A stretch of DNA of 64,000 bases from positions 1,054 through 65,053 of the forward strand of contig JBQDIN010000007.1 of NCBI GenBank assembly GCA_052094425.1, in the 5' to 3' direction. Positions 22,283 to 38,695 of this stretch are shown here, one piece after another. The position numbers and the translations under genes were made by a program. Within the stretch, counting starts at the first letter, position 1; every line of letters starts with the position of its first letter. The stretch is from Propionibacteriaceae bacterium. Lineage in GTDB: Bacteria > Actinomycetota > Actinomycetes > Propionibacteriales > Propionibacteriaceae. A model generated the notes under the pieces. That model was not told the origin of the DNA. It ran no database searches and saw only the letters and a list, made by a program, of their open reading frames with translations.

Positions 22283-24382
22283 TCACGGGTCTGGCTGGGC
22301 CGCCACCTCGGGGTAGTGGCACGCGTATCTGTGATCGTCGGGTCCAGGCACCGTCAGGTCCGGTTCCGTCGTCCGGCACAGCGACTGCTGGTCCTCAGCC
22401 AACGTCATGTACCGAGGGCACCTGGTGCGGAACCGGCACCCGGTGATCTGCTGACTGGGGCTGGGCAGATCGCCGGTCAGCAGCACCCGATCACGTTCCC
22501 GCTCGATGGTCGGGTCCGGCACCGGTGCCGCCGAGATCAGCGCTCGGGTATAGGGATGTGCCGGTGCGGTGAACACCTGCTCCACCTCCCCTATCTCGAC
22601 GATCCGGCCTAGGTACATCACCGCTACCCGGTCTGCGATATGCCGTACCACCGCGAGATCGTGGGTGACGAACAGGAAGGCGACGCCGAGCCGGGCCTGG
22701 ATGTCCTCCAGCAGATTCACCACACCGGCCTGGATGGAGACGTCCAACGACGCCACCGGCTCGTCCAGGACCACCAGTTGGGGTTCCAAGGCAAGGGCAC
22801 GAGCGATGCAGATCCGCTGCAGTTGGCCGCCCGAGAACTGACTCGGGAATCGATCGGCGTGAACCTGGTCGAGCCCCACCAACTCGAGCAACTCGCGGAC
22901 CCGCTCGACGATCTTCGGGCGAGCCACGCCGTGCGCGTTCATCGGCTCGGCCAGAATGTCGAACACGGTCGCTCTCGGATCGAGCGACCCCATCGGGTCC
23001 TGGAAGACGATCTGTAATCCACGCCGCATCGAGCGCCGCTCGGATCGGCCAAGCGCTACAACATCCTGGCCGAACACCTCCACGCTGCCGCCGACGGGCG
23101 GTTTGAGCTGCATCAGCTCAAGCAAGGTGGTGGACTTCCCGCAGCCGGACTCGCCGACCAGGGCCAGGGTCTCACCCTCGCGGAGATCGAAAGAGATCCC
23201 GTCCACGGCCTTCACGGTGCCCCGGTACCGACGCGTGATACCGGAACGCAGGGTGAAATGGCGGGTCAGCCCCTCCACCGCCAACACCGGTGCGCGATCC
23301 TGCCGGGCGATCCCCTCGTACATCGAGCGCACTCCCTCGGGTGGGGGGAACACGTCCTGATAAGTCAGTTCGCGTCCGGCAATCTCCTCGCCCCGCACGC
23401 AGGCGGCCAGATGCGACCGGTCATCGGGGAGTGCGACCAAGTCCGGCTCCGCGTGGGTGCAAGCTTCGACGGCGATCGGACAGCGCGGCGCGAACGGGCA
23501 CCCGAGGGGTAGATCGATCATCGACGGGGGGGATCCCTCGATCGGTACGAGGGGACCGGCCAGTCTGCGGTCCGACCGCGGCACCGCTGCCAGCAGGCCC
23601 ATGCTGTAGGGCATCCGGGGTCGGTAGAAGACATCGTCGACGGTCCCTACTTCCACCGGGCGGCCGGCGTACATCACCAACACGTCGTCGGCCACCCGGG
23701 CCACCACCCCCAGGTCGTGGGTGATCAGCATGATCGCCGCATTCGTCTCCGGTTGGGCTTTCAGCAGCACGTCGAGGACCTGGGCCTGGATGGTGACGTC
23801 CAGTGCTGTAGTGGGCTCGTCAGCGATGATCAGTTTGGGATTGTTGGCAATGGCAATCGCGATCATGACCCGCTGGCGCATTCCGCCGGACAACTCGTGC
23901 GGATAGGTGTTAAGTCGCTTGCCGGGATCCGGAATACCGACTAATTCCAGCAGTTCCGTCCCCCGGCCACGCAGTTGCCGCTGGTTCAACCGCTGATGGG
24001 CTTCGAGGGTTTCGGAGATCTGCTGACCGATGGTGTACACCGGCGACAGGGACGTCATCGGGTCCTGGAAGATCATCGCTATCTCGTTGCCCCGAACACC
24101 CGACATGGCGTGGTCGGAGAGCCCGAGGAGTTCGCGGCCCTCCAGCGCAACTGACCCGCTCACGGTGGCGGTGTCCGGCAGCAGGCCCATCACCGCCGTC
24201 GAAGTCACGGATTTTCCCGAGCCCGACTCGCCGGCAATCACCAAGGTCCGACCGGGGTGCACGTCGAACGACGCTCCCCGGACGGCGTCGATTGTGCCGT
24301 GCTCGCTGGCGAAAGACACTGCGAGATCACGTACCCGCAGGACCGGTTCCGGCGCACCCACCTGATTCTCCTGACGATTCAC
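22283..24382 (-). CDS. Dipeptide/oligopeptide ABC transporter ATP-binding protein, fused tandem NBDs (OppD+OppF)
   Basis: Two Walker A motifs (GESGSGKS, GESGCGKS), LSGGMRQR and FSGGQLQR, two Cys-rich CPFAPRC/CRFRTRC tails; GTG overlaps the permease stop. Confidence 0.93.
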   Translation of the reverse strand: MNRQENQVGAPEPVLRVRDLAVSFASEHGTIDAVRGASFDVHPGRTLVIAGESGSGKSVTSTAVMGLLPDTATVSGSVALEGRELLGLSDHAMSGVRGNEIAMIFQDPMTSLSPVYTIGQQISETLEAHQRLNQRQLRGRGTELLELVGIPDPGKRLNTYPHELSGGMRQRVMIAIAIANNPKLIIADEPTTALDVTIQAQVLDVLLKAQPETNAAIMLITHDLGVVARVADDVLVMYAGRPVEVGTVDDVFYRPRMPYSMGLLAAVPRSDRRLAGPLVPIEGSPPSMIDLPLGCPFAPRCPIAVEACTHAEPDLVALPDDRSHLAACVRGEEIAGRELTYQDVFPPPEGVRSMYEGIARQDRAPVLAVEGLTRHFTLRSGITRRYRGTVKAVDGISFDLREGETLALVGESGCGKSTTLLELMQLKPPVGGSVEVFGQDVVALGRSERRSMRRGLQIVFQDPMGSLDPRATVFDILAEPMNAHGVARPKIVERVRELLELVGLDQVHADRFPSQFSGGQLQRICIARALALEPQLVVLDEPVASLDVSIQAGVVNLLEDIQARLGVAFLFVTHDLAVVRHIADRVAVMYLGRIVEIGEVEQVFTAPAHPYTRALISAAPVPDPTIERERDRVLLTGDLPSPSQQITGCRFRTRCPRYMTLAEDQQSLCRTTEPDLTVPGPDDHRYACHYPEVAAQPDP

Positions 24383-25284
24383 TTCGATACTCCCGAGCCG
24401 GTCGCGGACGTGGGGTCCATGGCATCCCGCAAGCCATCTGCAATCAGTTGCATGCTCAGGCACAGCAGCACCAGCAGGCCCGCGGGGACCAGAAACAGCC
24501 ACGGCGCGCTGAGCAGGTTGGCCGATCCGTCTCGGATCAGGACCCCGAGTGAGGTGTCCGGCGGGGAAATACCAAAGCCGATGAAGGACAGCCCGGTCTC
24601 TGCTTCCACATTGCCCACCACACCCAACGTCACGTTGATGATCAGAACGGACCCCAAGTTGGGGACGAGATGTTGTCCCACGATCTTCGTCGCCGGCACT
24701 CCCATGAACCGGCTGGCCATCACAAATTCCCGCTCGCGCAGGGACATTGCCATCGAACGATAGACACGTGCCGGAAAGAACCAGTAGAAGAATGTCAGCG
24801 CCAGCGTCAGCCAGATCCAGCCGCTGGCGCTCGATGTCTGGTTGACCACGATCGCCAACAGGAAGAACGTCGGGATGACGATCGCCATGTCCAGCAACCA
24901 GACACCCGATTTCTCGATCTTGCCGCCGAAGTAGGCGATCCCGGTCCCGACGAACGCCGCAATGAGGTTGCCACCGATCGAGGCGATGAAGCCGATCAGC
25001 AACGACTTGCCCAGGCCGTGTGCCGCCAAGACGAACAGGTCACCGCCGGCGGAGTCCGTGCCCAGCCAATGCTCGGCACTCGGCGGCTGCTGCAGGCTCA
25101 GGAAGTCCAACTCAGTGTATTCCCAGGCGCCGATCAGCGGGCCGATAACGGGATAGGCGACCAGCAGGATCATCACCACCACGGCACCGACCGCGAACCG
25201 GTTCCGACAGAACCTTCGGATGAGTATCCGGCGCCTGGATACCCGCTGGAAGGCCAAGGTGCCTAGCTGGTCAGAGGTCGTCAT
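24379..25284 (-). CDS. Oligopeptide ABC transporter permease (OppC-like)
   Basis: HWLGTDSAGGDL, EREFVMASRFMG, HLVPN, EAETGLSFIGFG, DGLRDAMDP. Confidence 0.93.
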   Translation of the reverse strand: MTTSDQLGTLAFQRVSRRRILIRRFCRNRFAVGAVVVMILLVAYPVIGPLIGAWEYTELDFLSLQQPPSAEHWLGTDSAGGDLFVLAAHGLGKSLLIGFIASIGGNLIAAFVGTGIAYFGGKIEKSGVWLLDMAIVIPTFFLLAIVVNQTSSASGWIWLTLALTFFYWFFPARVYRSMAMSLREREFVMASRFMGVPATKIVGQHLVPNLGSVLIINVTLGVVGNVEAETGLSFIGFGISPPDTSLGVLIRDGSANLLSAPWLFLVPAGLLVLLCLSMQLIADGLRDAMDPTSATGSGVSK

Positions 25285-25299
25285 CCCGTCACCACACCT

Positions 25300-26271
25300 T
25301 CATGAAGTCCGGATCCGTGGATCGGCAAAGGCCACGAAAATGTCGGCCAGCCACAAGGCCACGCACGTTGAGGCACCCCCAAGGAATATCAACGCCACGG
25401 CACCGTTGATGTCGTTGTTGCCGATCGTCTCCAGGAAATACCAGCCGGCTCCGTGGATCGAGAAGATCAACTCGATGAAGACGACGCCGGTCACCATCCG
25501 GCTGATGGAGAAGGCGATCCCGTACGAGGTCGGTATGAACGCCGTGCGGAGCGCATGCCGCACGATCGCCTTCCGTCGCGGAAGGCCCCGTGCCCGAGCG
25601 GCACGGACATAGGGGGCATTGATGGTGTCCAACAGGTACAGCCGCTGTGTCAGGTGATAGCCCGCGTACCCAACCAGTGTCAGCGCGAGCGTTGGTAGAA
25701 CCAGATGCCGGACGTACTCGAAGAAACCGTCTCCGGCGTTGCCCAGACCGGTCACGAACAGTCCATCGACGCCGAACTCTTTGTGCAGGTACAAGTAGAC
25801 CAGCACGACAAGCGTCGCCATGACGAACGTGGGCACGACGAACAGCAGCGTGGTAAGGCCATTCGTGAGGATGCGATCCAGAACGCCGTACTTCCTTATG
25901 GCGGTCAGCACGCCGAGGCCGACACCGATGACGATGGCCAGCAAGGTGCCCACGAAGACCAACTGGACGCTGACCTCGGCGCGCTGCCAGATCTCCTCGG
26001 TGACGGGCTCTCCCACCGGGCTGTATCCCCAGTCCCAGTGCAGGGCCACGCTCTTTAGCCAGCGCCAATAGCGGACGAAGATCAACTCTTCGTCGTTCAC
26101 GTTGGCGTAATCGAGAAATTGGTCGATCGAGCTCTTCGGCGGCGGTGGTGTCTGCGCCAGGAAATTCGCCCGCGGCTTCAGGAACGACGACGCCAGAAAG
26201 TATCCAAGGCTTGTCGCGATGAACAGCATCAGCGCGTAATTGACAAGCCTCTTGGCCATCCATGCGAACAC
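25300..26271 (-). CDS. Oligopeptide ABC transporter permease (OppB-like)
   Basis: WDWGYS, HLVLPTLAL, YVRAARARGL, HALRTA, IELIFSIHGAG. Confidence 0.93.
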   Translation of the reverse strand: MFAWMAKRLVNYALMLFIATSLGYFLASSFLKPRANFLAQTPPPPKSSIDQFLDYANVNDEELIFVRYWRWLKSVALHWDWGYSPVGEPVTEEIWQRAEVSVQLVFVGTLLAIVIGVGLGVLTAIRKYGVLDRILTNGLTTLLFVVPTFVMATLVVLVYLYLHKEFGVDGLFVTGLGNAGDGFFEYVRHLVLPTLALTLVGYAGYHLTQRLYLLDTINAPYVRAARARGLPRRKAIVRHALRTAFIPTSYGIAFSISRMVTGVVFIELIFSIHGAGWYFLETIGNNDINGAVALIFLGGASTCVALWLADIFVAFADPRIRTS

Positions 26272-26309
26272 GAATCACCACCTCGTCGTTGTTGGGTCTT
26301 GCCGCACCG

Positions 26310-28040
26310 CTACTTCTGCCAGCCCACATCCGCCCAAGGGACGGACAGGAATCCCGCCGGGCCGTAGTTGGCCAACTTTGCTTTGGTCGCTGCTATGTCC
26401 GGGCCGTTGTAGAAGGGGATAGCTCCACCCAGACCGAGGTAAGCCCGCTCCGCCTTGTTGTAGAGCTTCTTCGCCTCCTCCACATCGGATTCGGTCGTCA
26501 TCTCCGCGACCATCGCATCGATCTCGTCACTCCCCACACCGCTGCTGTTCAACCCCCCGTCGCTGGACAGCAAGGCACTCCCGTACTCGGCGAACGCGAA
26601 GGGCGAGCTACTGAACGTGAATCCGGTGTCGATCATGTCCCACTTCTTCTCGTCCAGCTCGGTGCCGAACTGCGCCTGTGGCTTGTTGACAATCTCCACC
26701 GAGATCCCGATCTCTTCCATCATCTGCTGCATCGCCCGACCGCGCGCGGTAGTGCTGGTCGCATTCCCGAAGTTCATGTAGGTGAACGTGGCCTGGGCGC
26801 CGTCCTTGCTCCTGATCCCGTCTGAGCCGACCGCCCAACCCGCGTCGTCGAGTAGCTTCTTGGCCCGCTCGACGTCGTAGTTCAGGTCCTTCATGTTGTC
26901 TTCGTAACCTTTGACGAACGGGAAGACGACCAGCGAGCCCGGGGGCTCCTCCTCCCAATTCAAACCTTGCGATTCGATCTCGCCCAAGAGCTTCCGATTG
27001 GTGCCATAGATGACGGCGAGGCGCATGTCCTGATCCTGGAAGAACTTCGCATCCTTGTTGAGAGACAGCAAGTCCACATGGGGGTTCGGACCGGTCCGGA
27101 TGGTGACGTCTTCCATCACCTTGATCGTTTCAAGGTCTTCGGGGCCGCCCACGCCCATGGCACCTATCTCACCGTTGGCGAAGGCATTGTTGATCGAACT
27201 GGCGTCCATCACCCGGTAGATCAGTTTGTCCAGCTTGGCCGGCTCGCCCCACCAATTGGGGTTGCGCTTGAAAACGATCTCGGTCTTTGTGAGCGAATCC
27301 ACCGTGAACGGGCCGGCACCCAGCTCGGGATGAAGATCGTTGACCCAGCCGGTCATGTAGAACTCCGGGTCCAGATTCTTCGGGTGTTCCAGCGTCGTGA
27401 AGACACTCTGGTACGGGTAGTACGATTCGGAGAACGTGACGATCACATGCTTCGGATCCTTGCCCTGCTCCACGTTCTTGATGGATGAGTAGCCTGCGGA
27501 ATTGGACGGTGTGTACTTGTCCGAATCGCCACGTTGGGTGGTCCACGTGGCATGAAAGGCGCGCCAAGTGATCGGGTCACCGTTGTTCCAAGTCGCCTTC
27601 TCGTTGATGACATACTCGACGGTCTCCGGATTTTCCTTGACCAGTTTCACCGAGGTCAAGTAGTCGGGATTCGGAGTCGGGTCACCGTCGACGGTGTAGT
27701 TCCACATGTTGAACGCCGGAGTGAACACCCCCAGTAGCACGCTGTTTGCCGCTGTCGAACCGGCGCTGCTCCACCAGTTGAAGTTCGGTCCCGGATTGCT
27801 AATCGACAATGCCAGGGTGCCGCCGTCCTCGATGTTGTCCCGCGGCTGCGGATTATTGTAAGCTTGACCGGGAATGGTCTCGTGCGGAGGCCCATCATAG
27901 GTGGCCGGAACCCCTTCCGGCGGCGCAGTAGTGGTGGACCCGGCGGCCCCGCTCTCTTGATCTCCACCACCTCCACATGCGGAGAACGTCAGGAGTACTG
28001 CCAAGAACCCGACCCCAGCGATACTAATCCGTCGCATCAT
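26310..28040 (-). CDS. Peptide ABC transporter substrate-binding lipoprotein (family 5)
   Basis: Lipobox TFSAC; NNPQPRDNIEDGG, WNNGDPITW, GAGPF, NPNWWG, typical actinobacterial OppA. Confidence 0.93.
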   Translation of the reverse strand: MMRRISIAGVGFLAVLLTFSACGGGGDQESGAAGSTTTAPPEGVPATYDGPPHETIPGQAYNNPQPRDNIEDGGTLALSISNPGPNFNWWSSAGSTAANSVLLGVFTPAFNMWNYTVDGDPTPNPDYLTSVKLVKENPETVEYVINEKATWNNGDPITWRAFHATWTTQRGDSDKYTPSNSAGYSSIKNVEQGKDPKHVIVTFSESYYPYQSVFTTLEHPKNLDPEFYMTGWVNDLHPELGAGPFTVDSLTKTEIVFKRNPNWWGEPAKLDKLIYRVMDASSINNAFANGEIGAMGVGGPEDLETIKVMEDVTIRTGPNPHVDLLSLNKDAKFFQDQDMRLAVIYGTNRKLLGEIESQGLNWEEEPPGSLVVFPFVKGYEDNMKDLNYDVERAKKLLDDAGWAVGSDGIRSKDGAQATFTYMNFGNATSTTARGRAMQQMMEEIGISVEIVNKPQAQFGTELDEKKWDMIDTGFTFSSSPFAFAEYGSALLSSDGGLNSSGVGSDEIDAMVAEMTTESDVEEAKKLYNKAERAYLGLGGAIPFYNGPDIAATKAKLANYGPAGFLSVPWADVGWQK

Positions 28041-28106
28041 CAGTGATACCTCTCATGACGCCGTTGTTGTCAGTATTTGACGCTAGTGGCCGCCAGCTCC
28101 CAGCCG

Positions 28107-28124
28107 CTTGTAGCAGCTGACGAA
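28107..28124. promoter_or_regulatory. 18-bp palindromic operator (island motif copy 1), upstream of the opp operon
   Basis: CTTGT-AGCAGCTG-ACGAA; on the minus strand followed after exactly 21 nt by TAGCGT (28085-28080). Confidence 0.65.
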
Positions 28125-28170
28125 TGTACTTGGCCCTCTTTGTGACATTTCACGGGCCGTGATCCAAGGT

Positions 28171-29613
28171 TCAGTCGAAAGACAGGCAGTTGGTCGATAC
28201 CCGTGGCACCTGCCGGAGCCCGACGAAAATCCGGCACACCGTGCCGTCATCGTCCCGAAGGAACCGCACGCCGGAATCACCGGGTGGATCGGGGGTGACG
28301 AATTCGTCCCGAACCGCAGTGGGCAAGAGGCCCTTGGGATCCCCTCCGCGAACAATAAGCGTCAGGTCGCCGTCACGGATGTCGACGTTGACCCACACGT
28401 TCTCATCGGATCGGTAACTGCCCACGTAGTCGGCCAGGAACTCAGTCGGCAGGCGAAGGCCCTCCGGAGCCGGCAGGACGTGTGACCGGTCGACCGGCCA
28501 GCCATCGGCCAGGTTCAGCCCCGCCAGCCCTATCCGGCGGGCCGGCCCACCCCGCAGATTCACCAAGGTGGCAGTAGCGACGCCCCGGTCGGGCACGAAC
28601 TGCAGGCGGGAGGTGATCGATTTCAGCGCACCGCCGTGCTCTACCAGGACACTCCCGTGGAAGTCCGGCACCAAGGAGAGTCCGCAGCCGTAGTAGGAGT
28701 TGTTCCTGATCCGAATATTCGCTGTCAGCATGGTCCGCACACTCTTCGGGCTCAGCACCCGGCAGCCGATACCGTCGCCATCGGCGAGATACATCCGGGC
28801 GTAGGCCATCAGGTCATCCACACACGACCAGAGGGAACCGGCGCCCGGCATGGCCGGAGACCGCCACCACAGGGGTGAATCGACGATGACGCTGTCGTCG
28901 TCCTTGCCGTCGGTGACGGCGGGCGTGACCACGTTGCCGCCCCGGGACAGTGCATCGATGTCGAACCCGGTTCGGTGCATGCCCAGTGGCTGTAGGATGG
29001 CCCCATCAATGCACTCGGCCAGCGTTGTTCCGGTGACCCGCTCCAAGATGGCGCCCAGCAGTCCATAGCTGTCATTGGAGTAGCTGAACTCGTTTCCCGG
29101 TTCGCCGAGCAAGGTGTACTCCGCGGCGGACAGGAATGCAATCAGATCGTCGTGGGTGTCTAGGTAAGCACCGGTGACAGGTTCAAACGAGTCACCGAGC
29201 GAAACGGGATCGTCCAGCTCATGGGAGCGACGCATCGCGTGCCGCGATCCCGCCAGCGGAGGCATCCCGGTGGTGTGCGACATCAGGTGACGGATGGTCA
29301 CCTTCTTCAGGTGGTCGCCGCCCGGCATTGTGAACTCTGGGAGGTATTTGACGACGGGCTCATCGATGTGCAACAGACCCTTGTCCTGCTGGGCCATCGT
29401 TGCCGCGCAAACGAAGGACTTCGTCACCGACGCGATCCCGAAGATCGTCTGAGTGTCCACCGCGGTGTCGTCGGATCTCGACAACGATCCGGAGCAGTAG
29501 CTTTCGATACTGCCGTCCGGAGCGAGCGCGGCCGTTGCCATGGCCGGACCATGCGACTCCTTGAGCCATGGCTCTGCCAACTCCCGCATCGCGTCGCCAA
29601 ACTGGACGGTCAC
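28171..29613 (-). CDS. Beta-lactamase-family serine hydrolase (D-peptidase/CubicO-like), cytoplasmic; paralog 1
   Basis: SxxK (ASVTK), LMSHTTG, YSN, HGG motifs; C-terminal beta-rich domain; GTG 29613 after AGGAGG; no signal peptide. Confidence 0.9.
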   Translation of the reverse strand: MTVQFGDAMRELAEPWLKESHGPAMATAALAPDGSIESYCSGSLSRSDDTAVDTQTIFGIASVTKSFVCAATMAQQDKGLLHIDEPVVKYLPEFTMPGGDHLKKVTIRHLMSHTTGMPPLAGSRHAMRRSHELDDPVSLGDSFEPVTGAYLDTHDDLIAFLSAAEYTLLGEPGNEFSYSNDSYGLLGAILERVTGTTLAECIDGAILQPLGMHRTGFDIDALSRGGNVVTPAVTDGKDDDSVIVDSPLWWRSPAMPGAGSLWSCVDDLMAYARMYLADGDGIGCRVLSPKSVRTMLTANIRIRNNSYYGCGLSLVPDFHGSVLVEHGGALKSITSRLQFVPDRGVATATLVNLRGGPARRIGLAGLNLADGWPVDRSHVLPAPEGLRLPTEFLADYVGSYRSDENVWVNVDIRDGDLTLIVRGGDPKGLLPTAVRDEFVTPDPPGDSGVRFLRDDDGTVCRIFVGLRQVPRVSTNCLSFD

Positions 29614-29625
29614 GGCGCCTCCTAG

Positions 29626-29647
29626 TGTCCCGGACATGTCCCGGACA
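29626..29647. repeat. Tandem 11-bp palindrome (TGTCCCGGACA)x2
   Basis: TGTCC-C-GGACA repeated head-to-tail just upstream of the serine hydrolase RBS; runs into GACAATTGTC. Confidence 0.7.
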
Positions 29648-29785
29648 ATTGTCTGATTTACCGCCCCTTCAGACGTCAGAATGACGCCTCGGTGTCCGTT
29701 GACACTCGGTCAGCCGACTGTTGTGCAGTTTAAAACCTCGCACCGCGATCGGTCAGTGACGAATTCACCAACACTTCAGTGAGCG

Positions 29786-29803
29786 TCTGTATGGATCTAC
29801 GAA
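29786..29803. promoter_or_regulatory. 18-bp operator (island motif copy 2), between serine hydrolase 1 and PucR 1
   Basis: TCTGT-ATGGATCT-ACGAA. Confidence 0.5.
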
Positions 29804-29948: not shown

Positions 29949-31604
29949 GTGCGGCGTCCGGTGCCCCTGCAATCCTCGGCCACCCTGGGGACCGTGCTCG
30001 ACAACTTGGGCACGACTCTGCTGCAGACGGTTGGCCGTAGCGGCGACCCCACCCGGGCCATTGATGGCGTCTTTATCCACGACAACGTCGATGACGCTGA
30101 GTACCCCAAGAATTCGCTGGTGCTCGGCGTCGGAATGCATGCCGCCCAAGATGTCGCGGCCCTGCTCGACACTCTCGGCGCGCAGCGGGCCTCGGCGTTG
30201 GTGGTGCGCGCCCCGGCCCCGTCGGGCAGGCAAGTCATCGACGCTGCTGCTGCCGCCGACGTGATGCTGTTGGAGCTGACCCGCGGCGCGTCGTGGACCC
30301 GCTTGGTCGAGTTGTTGCGATCAATGCTCCCCGAGGGCGGTCTGGGCCTGACCGACTCGGGGACCCTTGCGGACATGCCATCGGGCGACCTGTTCGCGGT
30401 GGCCAATGCAGTCAGTACTCTGCTGGATGCGCCGATCACCATCGAAGACCGCAGTTCTAGGGTTATCGCCTTCTCTGCGAACCAGAACGACACTGACTCA
30501 TCGCGGAAACAGACGATTCTCGGTCAGCAGGTACCCGATCGATATCACAACGAACTGAGCGAGCGCGGGGTGTTCCAGGCGCTGAACAACTCGGACGATC
30601 CAGTTTACATCGAGCCGCTGACCGCTGGGGATGGTGAGTACGAGATGCCTCGGACCGCCCTGGCCGTGCGCGCCGGAGATGAACTACTCGGCTCACTTTG
30701 GGCGGCCGTCAGTGGTCCCCTTTCTGCGGAACGCCAGCGTGGATTCCAGGACGCGGCCAAGGTCGTCGCACTTCACATTCTGCGGCTGCGGGCCGGCGCC
30801 GATGTCGGCCGACGGCTGCGATCCGACTTGGTCAGTACGGCCTTGGAAGGTGGCACTGAAGCACCGGACGCCATCGGGCGTCTGGACTTGAACGGGCAGA
30901 GCGTGGCGGTGATGAAGTTGGGCTCAGTCGATCCGGGTCCCGACACGGCGATCGGTCGGGGCGCCGCCGAAAGTGCCCACCAACGCGAACGGATCGCTGA
31001 TGCTCTCACCATGCACCTCGACGCGCTGCATCCGCGATGCGCCACTGCGCTGATCGGGGACGCGACGTACGCGATCGTGCCGGTGCAGTCCGACGGCGAC
31101 GACCCCGAGACCCAAGTCAAACGCATTGCCGCCGAGTTCGTGGAACGTACCGGCGACCGGTTCTCCCTCGTGATCGGCGTGGGCACCGTCGCCGACGATG
31201 CGTCCCAGCTTGCCAGTTCCCGCCGGAACGCCGACCGGGTGACCCGGGCCCTGATCGCTGGGGGACGGGGCCAGCGGGTCGCGAGTCTGAGCGACGTGCA
31301 CATGGAGGTGCTCCTGCTGGAACTCCAGGATCGGCTCATCGCCGAGGGCGAGTCATCCACGGGGCCGGTCGAACGGTTGCACGCCTACGACCTGGAGCAC
31401 CGAGCCAACCTGACGGAGTCGCTGCGTGCCTGGTTGGACTGCTTCGGAGACATCCCGGCAGCCGCTGCCAAGCTGTTCATCCACCCCAACACGCTCCGCT
31501 ACCGACTGCAGCGCATCGCCGACATCGGGCCGCTCGACCTGACCGACAACCACGCGCGTTTCGCGGCGATGCTACAGCTCCGCATCATCGTCCGGACCCC
31601 GTGA
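29949..31604 (+). CDS. PucR/CdaR-family transcriptional regulator, paralog 1
   Basis: DAPITIEDRSSRVIAFS (GAF-like), C-terminal HTH_30 LRAWLDCFGDIPAAAAKLFIHPNTLRYRLQRI. Confidence 0.92.
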   Translation: MRRPVPLQSSATLGTVLDNLGTTLLQTVGRSGDPTRAIDGVFIHDNVDDAEYPKNSLVLGVGMHAAQDVAALLDTLGAQRASALVVRAPAPSGRQVIDAAAAADVMLLELTRGASWTRLVELLRSMLPEGGLGLTDSGTLADMPSGDLFAVANAVSTLLDAPITIEDRSSRVIAFSANQNDTDSSRKQTILGQQVPDRYHNELSERGVFQALNNSDDPVYIEPLTAGDGEYEMPRTALAVRAGDELLGSLWAAVSGPLSAERQRGFQDAAKVVALHILRLRAGADVGRRLRSDLVSTALEGGTEAPDAIGRLDLNGQSVAVMKLGSVDPGPDTAIGRGAAESAHQRERIADALTMHLDALHPRCATALIGDATYAIVPVQSDGDDPETQVKRIAAEFVERTGDRFSLVIGVGTVADDASQLASSRRNADRVTRALIAGGRGQRVASLSDVHMEVLLLELQDRLIAEGESSTGPVERLHAYDLEHRANLTESLRAWLDCFGDIPAAAAKLFIHPNTLRYRLQRIADIGPLDLTDNHARFAAMLQLRIIVRTP

Positions 31605-31663
31605 CAGCCGACGCGCCGGTCAGCTAGTGTCGTGTGTCATTAGACGATTGACTCCTTTGTGGG

Positions 31664-32902
31664 TCACGGCGCCACGTCGACGGCTGCGGCGATGTTGATC
31701 ACTCTTGAGCCTGCGGGCACGTCACTGCCGGAAACGGGAGTGCCGGTACTCGCCAGGAGCGCGGTGAGCTCGGACACACTGGGCTCGGCCCCGAACTTCT
31801 CACGCAGTACGGCGTAGGCGCCGGCCACCTGCGGTGCGGCGAAGGATGTTCCGCGGACGAACCACCAGCCGTGGTCCCGGTACGGCAACATGATCTTGTT
31901 ATTGCTGGCAAACGTTCCGTCGCCGACCGGCGCGTAGAGCTGGATCGCGCTCGACCGCTGGGTGTAGTTGGTGAGGGTGTCGGAGGTGACATTCGTGGCG
32001 CCCACCCGCACGATGTTCGAGCCGCAGTTCCAGGTCCCGGTTCCGGTGATGCCGTCGTTGCCGGCCGCCATCACCACGGCAATCCCCTTCTGTGTAAGGC
32101 GTCCAGCCGCCTCGTCGACCTCAAGGCCGGCGCTCGGGCAGGCGGATCCGTCAGGGAGGGGTCCGCCTGAGACCGAGAGGTTGATCGCCGCGATTCTCTC
32201 TCGGTACTCGCTGCGCTCGGCCAGTACGTAGTTGACCCAGTTGAGGGCGTCGACGACCGAGGCGTGAGGCCATCCCAGCTCGGTGCCCGAGCCTCCGCCG
32301 ACCTTGATCTGGTACACCTCGGCGCCCACGGCTGCACCGGCGGCGTGGTGGATCCGCCCGTCGGACTCGTTCCGAGTGCTCGGCTGGCCGACGACCGCGC
32401 CGGCCGAGCCGGTGCCGTGCCCGTTGTGGCAATAGCCACCGTCACTGTCCGTACAGGTGTTGAACGGCGCGTTCCCTGGCTCCGAGGAGCCGGCGGCCGA
32501 GGAGAAGTACATCGGATCCGCCCCGGGCCAGCTCGGCTGGGTCGTCGAGCCGGGGGTGCAGAGCGACGGCCACGGGGTGGCACCGATCTCCTGGCCGATG
32601 CATGCCTCGCCGGCGACCTTCGACTGACCGGTGGAGTCGGTGAACTGGCTGTTGCCAGCGGTGAAGGCACCGTCGATCACGACGACCACCTTGCCATTGC
32701 CGTCGTAGGCCGCACCAGCGGCATCGGTGTAGCGGCCATCCAATGAGCCGCCGAGGTTGTAGGCCGTCGCGGTGGTCGGGTCGCCCTCGACGGCTTGCGC
32801 CGGGCTCACGTTGCCCACCGCCGCCATCAGCATGCCGGCGGTGACTGCAGCAAGCATCTTGATCATGGGCGTCTTGATTCTGGTTGACTGGGTCATGGAC
32901 AT
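31664..32902 (-). CDS. Secreted S8 subtilase without apparent pro-domain
   Basis: Signal peptide ending AQA; Asp (VVVVID), His (HGTGSAG), oxyanion Asn (AAGND), Ser (GTSFAAP); RBS AGGAAGG. Confidence 0.9.
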   Translation of the reverse strand: MSMTQSTRIKTPMIKMLAAVTAGMLMAAVGNVSPAQAVEGDPTTATAYNLGGSLDGRYTDAAGAAYDGNGKVVVVIDGAFTAGNSQFTDSTGQSKVAGEACIGQEIGATPWPSLCTPGSTTQPSWPGADPMYFSSAAGSSEPGNAPFNTCTDSDGGYCHNGHGTGSAGAVVGQPSTRNESDGRIHHAAGAAVGAEVYQIKVGGGSGTELGWPHASVVDALNWVNYVLAERSEYRERIAAINLSVSGGPLPDGSACPSAGLEVDEAAGRLTQKGIAVVMAAGNDGITGTGTWNCGSNIVRVGATNVTSDTLTNYTQRSSAIQLYAPVGDGTFASNNKIMLPYRDHGWWFVRGTSFAAPQVAGAYAVLREKFGAEPSVSELTALLASTGTPVSGSDVPAGSRVINIAAAVDVAP

Positions 32903-33183
32903 CGTCTCGCCTTCCTGTCTCAGGGTGGGATGCGGCGACACGAATCGAGGTGTCACTGCAATCTCGTTTCATGCGTGCGGGCGGGCCCGAGTCGACCAGG
33001 CTGTCGATAGGAATGTGACCGGTGGCGGCTGGGACAAACAGTTGTCGCCGGTTCCACGCCCCCCGCCGGTGAGTGGAATCGAAACCAGCAACTCTGCCCG
33101 ACCATCTCGGCGTTCATGTCTTGAAAGTTAGTAGCGTCGTTGGCGCAGGACTTGTGGCTGTCGGACAGATTCTGGCGCTATAG

Positions 33184-33201
33184 TTCGTCTTCCCGGACGA
33201 A
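33184..33201. promoter_or_regulatory. 18-bp operator (island motif copy 3), between S8 protease and PucR 2
   Basis: TTCGTC-TTCCCG-GACGAA perfect inverted repeat, abutting TATAGT (33179-33184). Confidence 0.7.
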
Positions 33202-33304
33202 CGCCCCCGTGAACGAGGGCGCGAAGCCGAGAGCCCAAATAGCCGGGAGCCAAACCTCTACACCGACCGTTTACGTCATTCTCGAGGTGGTGCCAACATT
33301 GCCA

Positions 33305-34933
33305 ATGAGATCCCGTGCCAGCATGGGCCGCGCACTCGATGACCTCGGTACGACGCTCATCGACGTCGTGCACGGCAGTCCACGTCTAGACGAGGAGATC
33401 AACGGCGTCGTGATCCACGACCCGATCGACGCTCCCGACATCCCAGTGCGGTCGCTCATCTTGGGGGTCGGGCTTCATGACGAGAGAGAGATCGTCCGGA
33501 TAGTCACCCAGTTGGGGTCGGTCAACGCGGCGGGTCTAGTCATCAGGGCGCCGGTATCGGCCGACGCGTCGATTGCGGAGGCATCCGCGGCGGCCGGAGT
33601 GCCCGTTTTGGGGCTGACCCGGGGCGCCTCATGGGTGCAGTTGGCAGCCATGCTGCGCTCTCTCCTGTCAGACGACGACCTCGCGCCCGCTGGCGATGCC
33701 TACCTGGGCGGGATCCCGGCCGGGGACCTGTTCACTCTGGCCAACGCCATCGCCTCGCTGATCGATGCCCCGGTCACCATCGAGGACCGCAACAGTCAGG
33801 TGCTCGCCTTCTCCGGGCAACAGGGCGAGGCAGACTCGTCGAGGATCGAGACGATCTTGGGGCGCCGTGTCCCGGAGGCCTACTCCCGCCTGTTCGCCGA
33901 GCGGGGAGTGTTCCGCGACCTGTTTCGTAGCGACGAGCCGGTCTGGATCGATCCGCTGCCCATCAACGTGGACGAGAAGCCACGTGTTGCGGTTGCAGTT
34001 CGGGCCGGAGACGAGTTGCTGGGGTCGATCTGGGCCGCAGTTCCCGCGCCCCTCAGTGTCGAGCGCACTCAGGCCCTTCGCGAGGCGGCCAAGCTCGCCG
34101 CACTGCACATGTTGCGCGTCCGTGCCGGGGCCGACATCCGGAGGCAACTGAGCACGGATTTGCTGGCCACGGCACTGAAGGGAGGCGCCGAGTCGTCCGC
34201 AGCGTTGCAGCGCATGGGGCTGTCCGACCATTCCGTGGTGGTTCTGGCGCTGACCGGTCTGGAGGCCGCTGACGGCATCGCCTCCGAAGCCAACCTGGCC
34301 GCCGAGCGTGCCCGGCTCACCGACGGCTTCTCCATGCACCTCGGTACGGTGCACCCGCGCTGCGTGGCTGCTCTAGTCGGTGATGTCGTCTACGGGCTGC
34401 TACCCGTGAGCGGTGGTCATGTCAGCGGTGAGGACCGTGGGCTCCGGATCGCCCAGGACTTCCTCGAGCGGATCGGCAGCCGCTATCGGGCAGTGATCGG
34501 GGTCAGCCCGGTGGCCGAGACCGCCGCAGAATTGACGGCCGTGCGGTCCATAGCCGATCAGATCCTGCGAGTACTGCGGTCACGACGTCCAGAGGGATCC
34601 CAGTCCGCCCGGTTCAGCGATGTCAGCGTCGAGGCGCTCGTGCTCGACCTGCACGATCTGGCCGCAGCACGCGGAGATCGATTGACTGGGCCGGTAGCCG
34701 CCCTTGTCGCCTACGACCAGCGTCACAACAGCGATCTGGTTATCACGCTCCGCGCCTGGTTGGAGAGTTTCGGTAATATCCCGCAGGCCGCCGCCAAGTC
34801 ACACGTCCACCCCAACACCTTCCGCTACCGCCTGCGACGCCTCTGCGAGGTCGCCGATCTCGACATCGACGATGCTGATGCCCGGTTCGGTGTGATGCTC
34901 CAGCTCCGCGTGCTTGCCTCCGGCCTCCCTTGA
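33305..34933 (+). CDS. PucR/CdaR-family transcriptional regulator, paralog 2
   Basis: Colinear with paralog 1 (LDDLGTTLIDVV, DAPVTIEDRNSQVLAFS, HPNTFRYRLRRL); start inferred from alignment with paralog 1. Confidence 0.92.
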   Translation: MRSRASMGRALDDLGTTLIDVVHGSPRLDEEINGVVIHDPIDAPDIPVRSLILGVGLHDEREIVRIVTQLGSVNAAGLVIRAPVSADASIAEASAAAGVPVLGLTRGASWVQLAAMLRSLLSDDDLAPAGDAYLGGIPAGDLFTLANAIASLIDAPVTIEDRNSQVLAFSGQQGEADSSRIETILGRRVPEAYSRLFAERGVFRDLFRSDEPVWIDPLPINVDEKPRVAVAVRAGDELLGSIWAAVPAPLSVERTQALREAAKLAALHMLRVRAGADIRRQLSTDLLATALKGGAESSAALQRMGLSDHSVVVLALTGLEAADGIASEANLAAERARLTDGFSMHLGTVHPRCVAALVGDVVYGLLPVSGGHVSGEDRGLRIAQDFLERIGSRYRAVIGVSPVAETAAELTAVRSIADQILRVLRSRRPEGSQSARFSDVSVEALVLDLHDLAAARGDRLTGPVAALVAYDQRHNSDLVITLRAWLESFGNIPQAAAKSHVHPNTFRYRLRRLCEVADLDIDDADARFGVMLQLRVLASGLP

Positions 34934-34957
34934 CACGGACAGGACTCGGCCTCCCGG

Positions 34958-35529
34958 TCAGAGCCACGTGATGACCGCGCCCACGACGTCGTGGGCGTCA
35001 ACCAGATACCCGACCTCGATCGGGACCGGAAGGGCGCCCGGCGGCCTCCCGTCGGCCAGATCTTGTCGAGGCCCGCGACACCAAGCAGGCTGTCGCCGTA
35101 ACACCAGAAGTCAACGGCCAGGTGACTGAGCAGATGCCGGGCAACTCACCGGATCGCCGACGCATCGACCAGCACGCTGGCCATCAGGATTCGGCGGACC
35201 TCGAAATCCCGTAGTTTTGGACCTGCCTCAGGTTGGCTACTGCGATCGCCTGGGAGCCTGCCGCCACATGACCTCCGGCAGCATGGTGATCTTCGCGTGC
35301 GGCGCGTGGAGTACGCCTGCCTCGCGGCAGTACTGTGCCATCAAGGCGGTGTTCCACTCCAGTGCCGACGGTTTAGCGACATCAACGGCAGGGTGAGGTT
35401 ACCGGTCAGGCGTTCCAGCCCAGATCGGACAAGTGCTCGGCGTCCAACGGCCCAACCCGGGTTCCAGTCTCCTGGCTCGACCGGCGCGTTCTCGGACGTT
35501 CGAAGCACTGCGTGCTGTGTCGGCATCAC
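34958..35529 (-). pseudogene. Degraded D-serine deaminase/D-threonine aldolase-like PLP enzyme (alanine-racemase fold), not recoverable as a single ORF
   Basis: Segments in several frames: GNLTLPLMSL / LEWNTALMAQYCREAGVLHAPHAKITMLPEVMWRQ / AIAVANLRQV / FEVRRILMASVLVDASAIR*VA...DFWCYGDS / LPVPIEVG. The PHAK PLP-Lys motif lies within 35282-35308. Truncated after about a third of the fold. Confidence 0.7.
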
Positions 35530-37025
35530 GCAGCCCGGCGCCCCGCCGCGACCGTCCCCGTGATCGGGCGTCCGGGGTTGACGGCAGGATCGAGGACACC
35601 GTCACGTACGACGAACTGTCCATCCACGAGGACATGGGTGATACCCGAGGAGGGGATGGGTTCGTCCAAGCTCGCCCGGTCGCTGATTGTGCCCGGGTCG
35701 AAGGCGATCAGGTCGGCGTCGCAGCCGACCTGCACCCGGGCCTTGGCCCGCAGGGCGGGAACCGCGTCCTGGAGGATCTGGGCCGGGACTAGGGAACAAC
35801 GGCGCAGCGCCTCGGGCAAATCGAGGACCGCGCGATCGCGGACCAGCCAGCGGATGACCTTCGCGAAGGTGCCGAGGCTTCTCGGATGGGCCAACCCGCC
35901 GGGTCGTAGAGGCCACTCGCACGGGTCCGCGGTCCCGTCCTCGCGGACCACCTCCATCGAGTCGCTGGCGAACGCCGTGTCCGGCAGGAGGAACGACCTG
36001 GTCAACAGGTCCACCCCGTAGGGGGTGGACTCGTCTGCCCAGTCGAATACCACCTTCGCCATGGGCTCGTGCCGTCGCAGCTCCCGCAACTGCGCCTCCG
36101 AGGCAACCCGTTGTCCCGTCCGCAGGTGAATGATCGAAGACGGAGTGATGCCCAGACGCGGCAGGTTGACCGGATCGAGGAACGGTGCCGAGATCGAGGT
36201 CGCCGCGCTGCCGTAAGGGTAGGCCTCGGCACTGAGCCGCGCCCCACTGCGGCGAGCCGTGTCTACGGCGCCCGCGATCAGGTCGATCTGCCGGTTGGAA
36301 GTGCTGTGCAGATGGCAGATGTGCATGTGGGCGCCCGTGGCGGCACTCGCGGCGATCACCTCCAGAATTGCCTCCACCGAGGTGTTCGGCTCCCGGTGCG
36401 AGATGAAGCGGGCGTGGGTGAAGGTCGGCACCTGATGGCTGGCGGCCATCCGAGCGAGCTCGAGGTACTCCGCTCGTGCCGTCCCCGGGGCGTAGCCCAG
36501 CAGGATACCGATTCCGATCGCGCCCTCGTGCAGGGTGGTCTCGACGGCGTCCAGCAGCCGGGTGAGGTCGGTGCCGTCCCAAGGCTGCATCCAGTCGGTA
36601 CCCGCTGGGATCACCCCATGGTCGTCGTCGCCGGTCAACCTGGCACGAACCGCTGCCCATCCGGCGGAGAAGCCGAAGTTGATCGGTCGTCCCTGATCAG
36701 CAGCTGCTCGCAGGGCAGCGGGGACGTCCGCCCGGCCCGCCTCGAGGTCCAGTGCCGTCGTCACTCCGTCGAGGGCGTGAAGGCGCTGCCCGGTCAGGCT
36801 CTGGGCGTGGGAGTGCAGGTCGATGAAGCCAGGCGCGAGGACCAGTCCGGAAATGTCCACCACGCTGCGGGCGCGGAGCGGGCCGTCGATCACCGCGGTG
36901 ATACGTCCGTCGCTGACTCCAACCGATCGTGGTGCGTCGAGCCGCGTTTCCGGATCAACGACTCTGCCGCCCACCAACGCCAGATCCGCTTGGCCACGCT
37001 CGGGGTTAGGGCCTGTGAAGGTCAT
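35526..37025 (-). CDS. Metallo-amidohydrolase, D-aminoacylase/D-glutamate deacylase-like
   Basis: LAPGFIDLHSHA, LDGVTTALDLEAG, GILLGYAPG, EAYPYGS, ASDS, AHPRSLGTF, GCDADLIAFDP, GITHVLVDG. Confidence 0.85.
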   Translation of the reverse strand: MTFTGPNPERGQADLALVGGRVVDPETRLDAPRSVGVSDGRITAVIDGPLRARSVVDISGLVLAPGFIDLHSHAQSLTGQRLHALDGVTTALDLEAGRADVPAALRAAADQGRPINFGFSAGWAAVRARLTGDDDHGVIPAGTDWMQPWDGTDLTRLLDAVETTLHEGAIGIGILLGYAPGTARAEYLELARMAASHQVPTFTHARFISHREPNTSVEAILEVIAASAATGAHMHICHLHSTSNRQIDLIAGAVDTARRSGARLSAEAYPYGSAATSISAPFLDPVNLPRLGITPSSIIHLRTGQRVASEAQLRELRRHEPMAKVVFDWADESTPYGVDLLTRSFLLPDTAFASDSMEVVREDGTADPCEWPLRPGGLAHPRSLGTFAKVIRWLVRDRAVLDLPEALRRCSLVPAQILQDAVPALRAKARVQVGCDADLIAFDPGTISDRASLDEPIPSSGITHVLVDGQFVVRDGVLDPAVNPGRPITGTVAAGRRAA

Positions 37026-37120
37026 GTGCCACTCCCTCTCGAAGTATTGCCCACTCGCGCCGACAGGTCCGACACACGCTGGCACGCCGAGCAACACTAG
37101 ACGGGCCGCGCCCGCGGCGG

Positions 37121-37138
37121 TTCGTTCCCAGCGACGAA
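37121..37138. promoter_or_regulatory. 18-bp operator (island motif copy 4), between the D-aminoacylase and serine hydrolase 2
   Basis: TTCGT-TCCCAGCG-ACGAA; on the minus strand followed after exactly 21 nt by TAGTGT (37099-37094). Confidence 0.7.
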
Positions 37139-37258
37139 TTCCCGGACTGTTTTCTGATCGCCGGTGCAACCCAGACGCAGCGCTCCACCAGTAGTCTCGT
37201 CGCCATATCGGCGCGGGCATCCCGGGCCCGATCGTCATCACCCCACGACGGAGGCACT

Positions 37259-38695
37259 GTGACCCGCTGTTTCACCGACTCTCTGACCGCGTTCGCCGCA
37301 CCTGTGCTGGACAAGGCGAGGGACCCTTCGGCGGCCGTCGGCGTGATCGGCCGCGACGGCACGGCACACACCCACGCCTGGGGATCGGTGTCGAGGACGA
37401 CCAGTGATCCGATCACCAGTGCAACGGTCTTCGGTATCGCCTCCATCACCAAGTCTTTTGGTTCCGCAGTCGCGATGACCCTCCAGGATCGTGGCCTGCT
37501 GGACATCGACGAACCGATCAGTGCCCACCTACCCGAGTTACGCATGCCCGATCCGGCCCATCTGGCCAAGGTGACCACGCGCCACTTGATGAGCCACACC
37601 TCTGGGCTGCCTCCATTGCGCGGACTCCGTGCGGCCATGTACCGATCGCACCAGCGCGAGGACCCGGCAGCCCTGGCACAATACGAGTCCGGCCCCGGAG
37701 ACGACTGCCTGGACACCCACGAGGACCTCATCCGTTTCCTGTCCCAGCAGGACTACGCGCCGTTGGGCGAGCCTGGGACCGAGTTCAGCTACTCCAACGA
37801 CGGTTACGGACTGCTCGGAGCGATCATCGAGCGTGTCAGCGGGGAGCCGATGGCCGACTACCTGACTCGTTCGATCCTGGAACCACTGGGGATGACCAGG
37901 ACCGGATTCGACGTCACCGCCCTGATCAAGCAAGGGAACGTCGTCACCCCGGCGGTCCTCGATGACGAGACCGACGACGCGCAGATCGCCGACTCGCCGT
38001 TGTGGTGGGAAGCCCCGGCGATGGCCGCAGCCGGCTACCTGCGGTCCTGTGTCGACGACCTGCTGACCTACATCCGGATGTTCCTCGGCGAGGGCGAGGT
38101 CGCCGGGACCAAGGTGCTCAGCCCCGAAGCAGTGCGGACAATGACCACACCGGTGGTCCAGGTCAGCCAGACTTCCTTCTACGGTTGCGGTTTGACCATC
38201 GTGCCGGACTACCACGGGGTACGAATGGTCGAACACGGTGGCTCGCTGAAGTCGATCACCTCGCGCCTGCAGTTCGTGCCAGACGTGGGCGTGGGCACGA
38301 TCACCTTGATCAACCTCCGAGGGGCTCCGGCTCGCCGTATCGGGTTGGCTGCACTAAATCTCGCCGACGGGCACGCGGCAGAGCGCTCCCACGTGGCACC
38401 CCGGCCCGGCGGCCTGGCCCTGCCTGAGGGGGCACTGAGCGAGTACGAGGGCGTTTACGAGTCAGCTGAGGATGTCCAACTGACGATCACCGCGTCCGGG
38501 GACAGCCTGGAAATGGTGTCCCGGATCGGCAAACCTTCCACACTGCTTCCGACCGCTTGGCGTGACGAATTCGTGGTCGACGACGCTGTCGGGGACACCA
38601 ACGTCCGCTTCCTTCGCGACAGCTCTGGTTTGGTGGTCCGGGTGCTGGCGGGGCTCCGTCAGCTCGGCCGGGTTCGCGGCCCGGAACCGGAGTGA
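37259..38695 (+). CDS. Beta-lactamase-family serine hydrolase, cytoplasmic; paralog 2
   Basis: ASITK, LMSHTSG, YSNDGY, HGGSLKSITSRLQFVPD; colinear with 28171..29613; RBS GGAGG. Confidence 0.9.
   Translation: MTRCFTDSLTAFAAPVLDKARDPSAAVGVIGRDGTAHTHAWGSVSRTTSDPITSATVFGIASITKSFGSAVAMTLQDRGLLDIDEPISAHLPELRMPDPAHLAKVTTRHLMSHTSGLPPLRGLRAAMYRSHQREDPAALAQYESGPGDDCLDTHEDLIRFLSQQDYAPLGEPGTEFSYSNDGYGLLGAIIERVSGEPMADYLTRSILEPLGMTRTGFDVTALIKQGNVVTPAVLDDETDDAQIADSPLWWEAPAMAAAGYLRSCVDDLLTYIRMFLGEGEVAGTKVLSPEAVRTMTTPVVQVSQTSFYGCGLTIVPDYHGVRMVEHGGSLKSITSRLQFVPDVGVGTITLINLRGAPARRIGLAALNLADGHAAERSHVAPRPGGLALPEGALSEYEGVYESAEDVQLTITASGDSLEMVSRIGKPSTLLPTAWRDEFVVDDAVGDTNVRFLRDSSGLVVRVLAGLRQLGRVRGPEPE

Follow-up and report, generated by a model that had tools for sequence, protein, structure and literature searches.

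A gene island with PucR-type regulators and a putative role in peptide scavenging in a Propionibacteriaceae bacterium

The window analyzed here is a stretch of 64,000 nucleotides from a Propionibacteriaceae bacterium (GenBank assembly GCA_052094425.1, contig JBQDIN010000007.1). It contains an island of about 18 kb in which peptide-related genes are grouped: an Opp-type importer, two S12-family serine hydrolases, a secreted S8 subtilase, an amidohydrolase, the remnant of a D-serine-deaminase/D-threonine-aldolase-like (DSD-like) gene, and two regulators of the PucR/CdaR family. The island is probably a peptide-scavenging regulon under these regulators, with D-residue peptides among its substrates; on whether D-specificity is its main purpose, the evidence is evenly balanced. 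D-amino acids and peptides with D-residues are abundant in microbial habitats, as cell-wall debris and non-ribosomal peptides, and their sensing and use by actinobacteria are poorly mapped.

Open reading frames (ORFs) were delimited by local codon bias combined with profile searches (Pfam and NCBIfam), and start codons were taken from gene calls on identical public contigs. The sequence is present in public runs from food and food-fermentation metagenomes. Gene identities, paralogy, predicted localization, and island boundaries, together with the synteny of the regulator subfamily and the conservation of its operator, were read directly from the sequences. An initial annotation, made from this sequence alone, had proposed an undescribed PucR-activated regulon whose route runs from external cleavage through peptide uptake, D-peptide hydrolysis, and deacylation to deamination.

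Gene content of the island

The island has three divergent intergenic regions, which lie between hydrolase 1 and PucR1, between the subtilase and PucR2, and between the amidohydrolase and hydrolase 2, and which correspond to the three divergent units of the initial annotation. Its gene assignments (an Opp importer, two paralogous cytoplasmic SxxK hydrolases, a secreted subtilase, a D-aminoacylase-like amidohydrolase with a DSD-like pseudogene co-oriented behind it, and two paralogous PucR/CdaR regulators) were all borne out by the matches and motifs that follow.

The Opp unit is headed by hydrolase 1 (28171..29613, - strand). It continues on the same strand with OppA (26310..28040), a substrate-binding lipoprotein with a Pfam SBP_bac_5 domain (1.5e-53) and the lipobox LTFSAC, the permeases OppB (25300..26271; BPD_transp_1, 4.9e-28) and OppC (24379..25284; BPD_transp_1 and OppC_N), and a fused OppD/OppF ATPase with two nucleotide-binding domains (22283..24382; ABC_tran and oligo_HPY twice each, with matches to NCBIfam dipeptide/oligopeptide ATPase families). 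With a family-5 binding protein, two permeases, and ATPase domains bearing the oligo_HPY extension, the importer is of the Opp/Dpp type, and the top match of OppA in the Protein Data Bank (PDB) is Mycobacterium tuberculosis OppA Rv1280c (E = 2e-63). The subtilase (31664..32902, - strand; Peptidase_S8, 4.9e-18) has a Sec signal peptide ending in SPAQA|VEG and the Asp, His, and Ser motifs VVIDGAF, HGTGSAG, and GTSFAAP; no PDB relative was found for it at 1e-5.

Hydrolase 1 and hydrolase 2 (37259..38695, + strand) are 55% identical to each other, and both match PF00144 (1.2e-50 and 4e-59, respectively). The catalytic motifs are SITK/SVTK at position 62 (SVTK in hydrolase 1), YSN at 178, and HGG at 326, and the SxxK, YxN, and HxG positions are invariant among 45 members of the family. 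Sequence inspection found no signal peptide in either hydrolase or in the amidohydrolase, and all three are predicted to be cytoplasmic. Hydrolase 1 ends in a beta-barrel domain with a weak match to DUF3471. In the AlphaFold model of hydrolase 2 (pLDDT 91), the S12 domain is followed by a helix (392-396) and eight strands (398-471), and the C-terminal domain as modeled is a lipocalin-like eight-stranded barrel. Among PDB sequences, hydrolase 2 is best matched by Pab87 of Pyrococcus abyssi (2qmi, 1e-37), and full-length fold matches of its model comprise the IS11 esterase, Pab87, the DL-peptidase Lip3, and the SurE and Ulm16 cyclases (2qmi and 7spn being among the entries matched), with ClbP as a further match. 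In a collection of 5.8 billion proteins, the nearest non-paralog of hydrolase 2 was 41% identical, and all such neighbors came from Bacillaceae, Brevibacillus, and similar Firmicutes. Their gene contexts include an M55 D-aminopeptidase in Alteribacter and a binding protein with M19 and PepX peptidases in Brevibacillus.

The amidohydrolase (35526..37025, - strand) is a cytoplasmic protein of the D-acylase clade and of PRK09061 type. It matches NCBIfam NF006560 (2.4e-166) over residues 9-492 with 554 bits, the cut-off being 340, and its nearest structure is the N-acyl-D-glutamate deacylase of Bordetella (3gip, 3e-25). There are thousands of relatives; the closest (50-57% identical) are actinobacterial, and some of them are named N-acyl-D-Asp or N-acyl-D-Glu deacylase in their sources. 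Invariant in 121 relatives are H71 and H73 (HxH), Glu95, H204, H235 and H238, YPY, D355, and HPR. The YPY at residues 269-271 is the hinge motif of D-acylases (PMC12149444), to which HPR is likewise common. This pattern indicates that the enzyme is probably active. In the Alcaligenes and Bordetella D-acylases, a Cys after strand 2 serves as a metal ligand. Members of the window's family have Ala, Gly, or Ser at that position, adjoining the invariant Glu95, which suggests a different metal site in which E95 and a small residue take the place of Asn-Cys. Membership in the classical D-acylases was rejected with Glu in place of the Cys ligand; the enzyme belongs to a separate, uncharacterized branch of the D-acylase clade because the invariant residues are kept and the Cys ligand position differs.

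Behind the amidohydrolase, and co-oriented with it, lies the DSD-like pseudogene (34934..35525, - strand), in which about 155 N-terminal residues of a fold-type-III pyridoxal-phosphate (PLP) enzyme are spread over three frames and broken by frameshifts and in-frame stops. A read-through of these frames matches D-serine deaminase 3gwq (E = 2.8e-6), and the match includes the PHxK lysine motif (here PHAK); no Pfam match was found for the remnant. Although the PHAK lysine is present, the intact frame of about 380-420 residues expected of such an enzyme is missing. Contigs of public run X2, about 97-98% identical to the window, contain the island with single-base insertions in the remnant (34979-35522), and in contigs of run X3 (about 94% identical) 35 bases stand in its place; the insertions and the deletion fit ongoing neutral decay. 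Run X3 is labeled as RNA and covers several, though not all, of the island genes. It was rejected as evidence of expression, since the material may be DNA and contig depth is no measure of transcription.

Regulators and the gene neighborhoods of their relatives

PucR1 (29961..31604, + strand; HTH_30 1.7e-20, GGDEF_2 5e-9) and PucR2 (33305..34933, + strand, with an alternative start at 33209; HTH_30 1.7e-19 and a weak PucR domain) are 47% identical. PucR2 is the copy nearest to a widespread actinobacterial subfamily, and PucR1 is the more divergent one. PucR-family proteins are regulators of catabolic genes. The window regulators resemble PucR, AdeR, and CdaR in their C-terminal HTH_30 and GGDEF-like middle domain, with AdeR as the top NCBIfam match, but score far below the family cut-offs (125 bits vs 700).

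An alignment of the regulators was used to scan one genome per species. This confirmed 466 stretches that encode relatives, of which the best 80 loci were kept. Over about 540 residues, the relatives at these loci show 48-55% identity to PucR1 and up to 62% to PucR2, and all of the named loci are actinobacterial. Genes within 10 kb of the regulator gene were counted. An S12 hydrolase was present at 64 of the 80 loci, Opp genes at 57, an N-succinylamino-acid racemase (NSAR) at 56, an M20 enzyme at 52, and an amidohydrolase of the window's family (up to 52% identical) at 13; 69 loci had at least one of the five. The synteny expected by the initial annotation was thus borne out: Opp and S12 genes occur together beside the regulators at 55/80 loci, and the amidohydrolase joins them at 6/80. 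The DSD-like gene was found at none.

Related clusters were seen in Amycolatopsis, Streptomyces, Nocardioides, Kribbella, Microbacterium, and others, and the typical gene order is OppBCDF, PD40/S9 with PF00144, M20, a 317-residue ORF, the racemase, and the regulator. The racemase is of the Amycolatopsis N-acyl/N-succinylamino-acid racemase type (1sja, 2e-145). A dipeptide (L-Ala-D/L-Glu) epimerase was considered for it and rejected, the enzyme being of NSAR/OSBS type. In Nocardioides, in Kribbella, and on a metagenome contig, genes for amidohydrolase relatives stand in clusters with a second amidohydrolase, an M55 D-aminopeptidase, an enolase-superfamily racemase of NSAR type, PF00144, an ABC importer, an M20 peptidase, and a PucR-type regulator 39-43% identical to those of the window.

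Two features of the related clusters were recorded separately. At L015:3271-6651 and L021:3445-6729, a PD40 propeller, an S9 domain, and PF00144 lie in one ORF of about 1100 residues, which may be a fused two-peptidase protein. The conserved 317-residue ORF between the M20 and racemase genes (L015:7825-8777) has a GNAT-like Q/RxxGxG/A motif by eye. Assignment to GNAT was rejected since the likeness is by eye only and searches of Pfam, NCBIfam, and the PDB matched the ORF to nothing. It is a possible candidate for the transferase that is otherwise missing from the D-to-L pathway.

Putative operators

The initial annotation had given one operator motif to all three units, by which it probably meant TCCCGGAC, the only exact 8-mer common to the three divergent regions, where 4 of its 8 window copies lie. 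The evidence runs against that motif. It is unenriched in the window (8 copies found, 7.95 expected), and in 8.7% of simulations chance alone gave three regions a common 8-mer. A tandem duplication of the 11-bp palindrome TGTCCCGGACA (29626..29647, + strand), just upstream of the hydrolase 1 start, carries two of the four copies in the divergent regions; it has a 1-base insertion at its junction in a relative and was found only in this organism's own contigs. TCCCGGAC was therefore rejected as a common operator: it is unenriched, is not significant as a shared 8-mer, and has a palindromic form, TGTCCCGGACA, that is an organism-specific duplication.

Another site emerged independently from the intergenic DNA of the 80 regulator loci, in which GACGAAT, GACGAAA, and CGAACTA were among the most enriched 7-mers. 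The underlying site is the palindrome TTCGTC-N6-GACGAA, which differs from the PucR box of Bacillus subtilis. With at most 1 mismatch, it occurs within 220 bp upstream of the regulator gene at 23/80 loci, typically 50-100 bp from the regulator start, and a few of the 23 lie in the end of the preceding racemase gene. In Amycolatopsis and Streptomyces, it also stands 37-58 bp upstream of amidohydrolase genes and 126-129 bp upstream of S12 genes. Its density at the related loci is 0.31/kb in intergenic DNA vs 0.035/kb elsewhere.

In the window, 3 palindromes with at most 1 mismatch were found, and 0.12 were expected. A scoring matrix built from the related loci only placed its top two hits in the 64 kb at starts 37118 and 33181. 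The higher (23.2 bits) covers TTCGTTCCCAGCGACGAA (37121..37138), a palindrome with 1 mismatch in the amidohydrolase/hydrolase 2 region; it stands 121 bp away from the start of hydrolase 2 and is followed by TCCCGGAC at 37140-37147. The second (22.1 bits) covers TTCGTCTTCCCGGACGAA (33184..33201), which fits TTCGTC-N6-GACGAA without a mismatch and lies upstream of PucR2, divergent from the subtilase. A credible palindrome was not found in the region between the hydrolase 1-Opp unit and PucR1, where the best score, 8.5 bits, is at noise level; this counts against the regulon reading. With the top matrix scores in two divergent regions and 8.5 bits in the third, the putative family operator is assigned to two of the three units. 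A shared operator, as first proposed, therefore stands for the PucR2/subtilase and amidohydrolase/hydrolase 2 regions and falls for the hydrolase 1/PucR1 region. PucR1, the more divergent copy, may recognize another sequence.

Other sites of this kind were also noted. The third window site with at most 1 mismatch lies inside the OppA coding sequence (26898-26921, 13.8 bits), and an operator-like match is found inside the 3' end of a SulP gene (39565-39588, 18.8 bits). Regulator paralogs in Amycolatopsis (L019:9932-13210, likewise L020, L026, and L027) have a perfect operator-like site 70 bp upstream. At L019, a gene for an M4 thermolysin-like protease comes after the regulator gene in a setting that has no Opp or S12 genes, an arrangement that recalls the PucR2/subtilase pair of the window.

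Proposed function and alternatives

In the proposed route, the secreted S8 subtilase would cut extracellular protein or peptide material, and OppA with OppB, OppC, and the fused OppDF would import the oligopeptides, as their homology to M. tuberculosis OppABCD suggests. The two cytoplasmic S12 hydrolases with their lipocalin-like C-termini would then trim the peptides, probably including D-residue termini, to judge from Pab87 and other S12 enzymes. The amidohydrolase would probably free D-amino acids of N-acyl groups or split residual X-D-amino-acid dipeptides. Control would lie with the two PucR-type regulators, whose subfamily would recognize the putative operator TTCGTC-N6-GACGAA. The downstream D-amino-acid deaminase-like gene would make no contribution. 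The substrates, their stereospecificity, the inducing ligand, and activation as opposed to repression are what we infer from these homologies and gene neighborhoods. The import and breakdown steps of the route first proposed thus keep a coherent gene set with PucR-type regulators and a synteny to match. Its deamination step is lost, as the DSD-like gene survives only as a pseudogene and one relative has deleted it. The subtilase and DSD-like genes do not recur with the regulators elsewhere.

That D-residue substrates are included is plausible from several independent hints: the enzymology of S12 proteins and Pab87, the placement of the amidohydrolase in the D-acylase clade, the relic of a DSD-like gene, and the racemase pathway and M55 enzymes of related clusters. 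A number of observations weigh against this reading. The amidohydrolase is without the Cys metal ligand of D-acylases, having LEAG aligned to NCG of 3gip, and we know of no characterized member of its subfamily (NF006560). The island has no working route for freed D-amino acids, the DSD-like gene being dead and the racemase/M20 module missing. Neither an S8 subtilase (0/80) nor a DSD-like gene (0/80) was found near the regulator relatives. The hydrolases are only 28-32% identical to the S12 proteins of related clusters, and their nearest relatives (35-41%) are in Firmicutes, in varied contexts. Moreover, S8 subtilases cleave L-peptide bonds, and ordinary L-peptides are plentiful in food fermentations. 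The top structural match of hydrolase 2 is the esterase IS11, and the motifs YAEAF/L, FFYLN, and C-terminal ERY, the three used by the Pab87 authors for defining CubicO proteases, were found in neither hydrolase (RAAMY and FSYSN stand at the aligned positions). Strict membership in the CubicO proteases was rejected on these motifs, and ester or L-peptide substrates stay in consideration because of the best fold match and the missing motifs together.

The alternative that survives best, though unlikely, is a regulon for general protein or L-peptide nutrition that has no special link to D-amino acids, in which the subtilase would free ordinary peptides (from food proteins, for example), Opp would bring them in, the S12 proteins and the amidohydrolase would be ordinary aminopeptidases, amidases, or dipeptidases, and the PucR proteins would sense an amino acid or peptide. 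The food and food-fermentation origin of the runs agrees with it, as do the general proteases (the S8 subtilase, and the M4 protease beside Amycolatopsis regulator relatives), the S9 prolyl-oligopeptidase-type and M20 peptidases of related clusters, the likeness of Opp to the general oligopeptide importer of M. tuberculosis, and the dispensability of the DSD-like gene, a pseudogene that has been lost in a relative. Against it stand the NSAR of the D-to-L conversion pathway at 56/80 regulator loci, the M55 D-aminopeptidases with which the regulator subfamily also co-occurs, and an amidohydrolase of the D-acylase clade; S12 peptidases, too, are mostly D-stereospecific (PMC2651629).

A role in defense or detoxification is very improbable. 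Here, the S12 proteins would inactivate non-ribosomal peptide, lipopeptide, or beta-lactam antibiotics from neighboring organisms, as DL-peptidases or D-stereospecific resistance peptidases do, the amidohydrolase would strip acyl tails, and Opp would take up the compounds or their fragments. Hydrolases that have no signal peptides would reach these compounds only once they had been taken up, and resistance enzymes do not usually work in that way; most of what the related clusters encode is catabolic (importer, M20, racemase, S9), and PucR-family regulators are generally known to control catabolic genes. This role would nevertheless suit an island that looks horizontally acquired, and the fold matches to the lipopeptide-cleaving DL-peptidase Lip3 (PMC12903863), to the SurE and Ulm16 cyclases of penicillin-binding-protein (PBP) type, and to ClbP point the same way, as do published D-stereospecific peptidases that hydrolyze gramicidin (PMC9541196). 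Least probable is the recycling of stem peptides from the cell's own peptidoglycan instead of foreign material. In its favor, Pab87 takes the terminal D-Ala off a muropeptide (PMC2651629), the closest characterized relative of the amidohydrolase acts on N-acyl-D-glutamate, and there is a beta-N-acetylglucosaminidase-like gene 8 kb to the left. Against it, an island of foreign composition with repeats on both sides is not where a housekeeping pathway would be expected, the secreted subtilase would have no obvious role, and the genes include neither an LD-carboxypeptidase, an amidase, nor an L-Ala-D/L-Glu epimerase; related clusters have NSAR as their racemase and not a dipeptide epimerase.

Peptide scavenging that includes D-residue substrates is accordingly preferred. 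A wider reading, held tentatively and with more doubt than confidence, makes the window a mosaic member of an undescribed D-peptide salvage regulon found across the actinobacteria, in which the PucR subfamily would bind the palindrome, sense a D-amino acid, an N-acyl-D-amino acid, or a D-peptide, and couple Opp and S12/S9 functions to the NSAR pathway. If true, the long-studied N-acylamino-acid racemase of Amycolatopsis would gain a physiological source of substrate.

Comparison with known systems

In 2009, D-peptide scavenging was suggested as the role of Pab87, whose gene has a D-aminoacylase gene and a dipeptide ABC transporter as neighbors (PMC2651629). The word "undescribed" was accordingly overstated for the enzyme logic, since the trio of an S12-lipocalin protein, a D-aminoacylase, and a peptide transporter is already in that paper. 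In both Pab87 and the window hydrolases, an S12 domain with SxxK, YxN, and HxG is followed by a C-terminal eight-stranded lipocalin-like barrel. They are only about 26% identical, however, and the window proteins do not have the three CubicO motifs. Pab87 is a cubic octamer with an internal chamber and a D-stereospecific exopeptidase, to which the window hydrolases are likened by sequence and model; they share its architecture and plausibly its chemistry, and stand outside the Pab87 family in the strict sense. The window further differs in its two hydrolase copies, secreted subtilase, dedicated PucR regulators, and other amidohydrolase subfamily.

With the actinobacterial clusters, the window shares the regulator subfamily, the palindrome, an Opp-type importer, and two-domain S12 hydrolases. 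Unlike them, it has no M20/NSAR module, S9 peptidase, or M55 enzyme, so that the NSAR and M20 enzymes of the D-to-L pathway are confined to the related clusters; it adds the S8 subtilase and a second regulator, and its genes form divergent units vs one co-oriented row. The window is read as a rearranged, horizontally moved, and partly decayed variant of this recurring cluster.

The dpp operon of B. subtilis combines the D-aminopeptidase DppA with the Dpp transporter and adjoins the murein-peptide genes ykfABCD. The likeness lies in the pairing of peptide ABC import with peptidases that are D-specific (putatively so in the window) in order to scavenge nutrients; dpp/ykf has an M55 enzyme and a dipeptide epimerase, whereas the window has S12 hydrolases and an amidohydrolase. 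For dpp/ykf, we know of global regulators and of no dedicated PucR-type regulator.

Literature searches found no described regulon of this kind. As far as they show, what is new is a PucR subfamily with a palindromic operator that is tied to Opp, to S12/S9 enzymes, and to a racemase pathway across the actinobacteria. The comparison links the regulator subfamily and its operator to peptide import and S12 enzymes and, in most relatives, to the NSAR pathway; with this link of regulator, operator, and enzymes, cultured Amycolatopsis, Streptomyces, or Kribbella could serve to test the question directly. The production of D-amino acids and the cleavage of D/L peptide bonds also give the S12, amidohydrolase, and racemase enzymes a practical interest. 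The gain is modest where the window alone is concerned, since it is a partly decayed variant from an uncultured food-associated bacterium.

Boundaries and origin of the island

The third-codon-position GC content (GC3), which the initial annotation had judged by eye to be lower than in the flanks, is 0.806 +/- 0.018 in 11 island genes vs 0.897 +/- 0.027 in 21 flanking genes (Mann-Whitney p = 7e-6), in agreement with that judgment. The left boundary is an intact DUF222 and HNH endonuclease gene (20366..21682, - strand; Pfam DUF222 1e-22, HNH 1e-6; GC3 0.80), and the right boundary is a degraded inverted paralog (38749..39430, + strand; inverted repeat I1) with a weak DUF222 match, whose translation is 58% identical to residues 79-187 (109 residues) of the left copy. 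The two paralogs thus place a repeat gene in inverted orientation on either side of the island, and public assemblies break at its edges because the repeats sit there. Directly adjoining the 3' end of OppDF is a relic of an IS3-family insertion sequence of about 300 bp (21790..22080, + strand), which retains the end of orfA and the start of orfB. Its ALIL frameshift pseudoknot lies at 21887-21997 (Rfam RF01497, 57.6 bits vs a gathering score of 50). From the GC3 values, the IS3 relic, and the inverted DUF222/HNH copies, the island looks compositionally foreign and horizontally acquired. A plasmid origin was rejected, as known plasmids were matched only by short stretches of ABC ATPases.

A scan of the window for Escherichia coli-type promoters and terminators gave counts equal to those in shuffled sequence. 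Outside the island, the flanking lysyl-tRNA synthetase is 80-82% identical to its Friedmanniella and Microlunatus counterparts, which places the host in the Propionibacteriaceae. The beta-N-acetylglucosaminidase-like gene, about 8 kb to the left of the island, scores 363 bits, which is below the cut-off, and is followed by three ORFs on the same strand (11746-16880).

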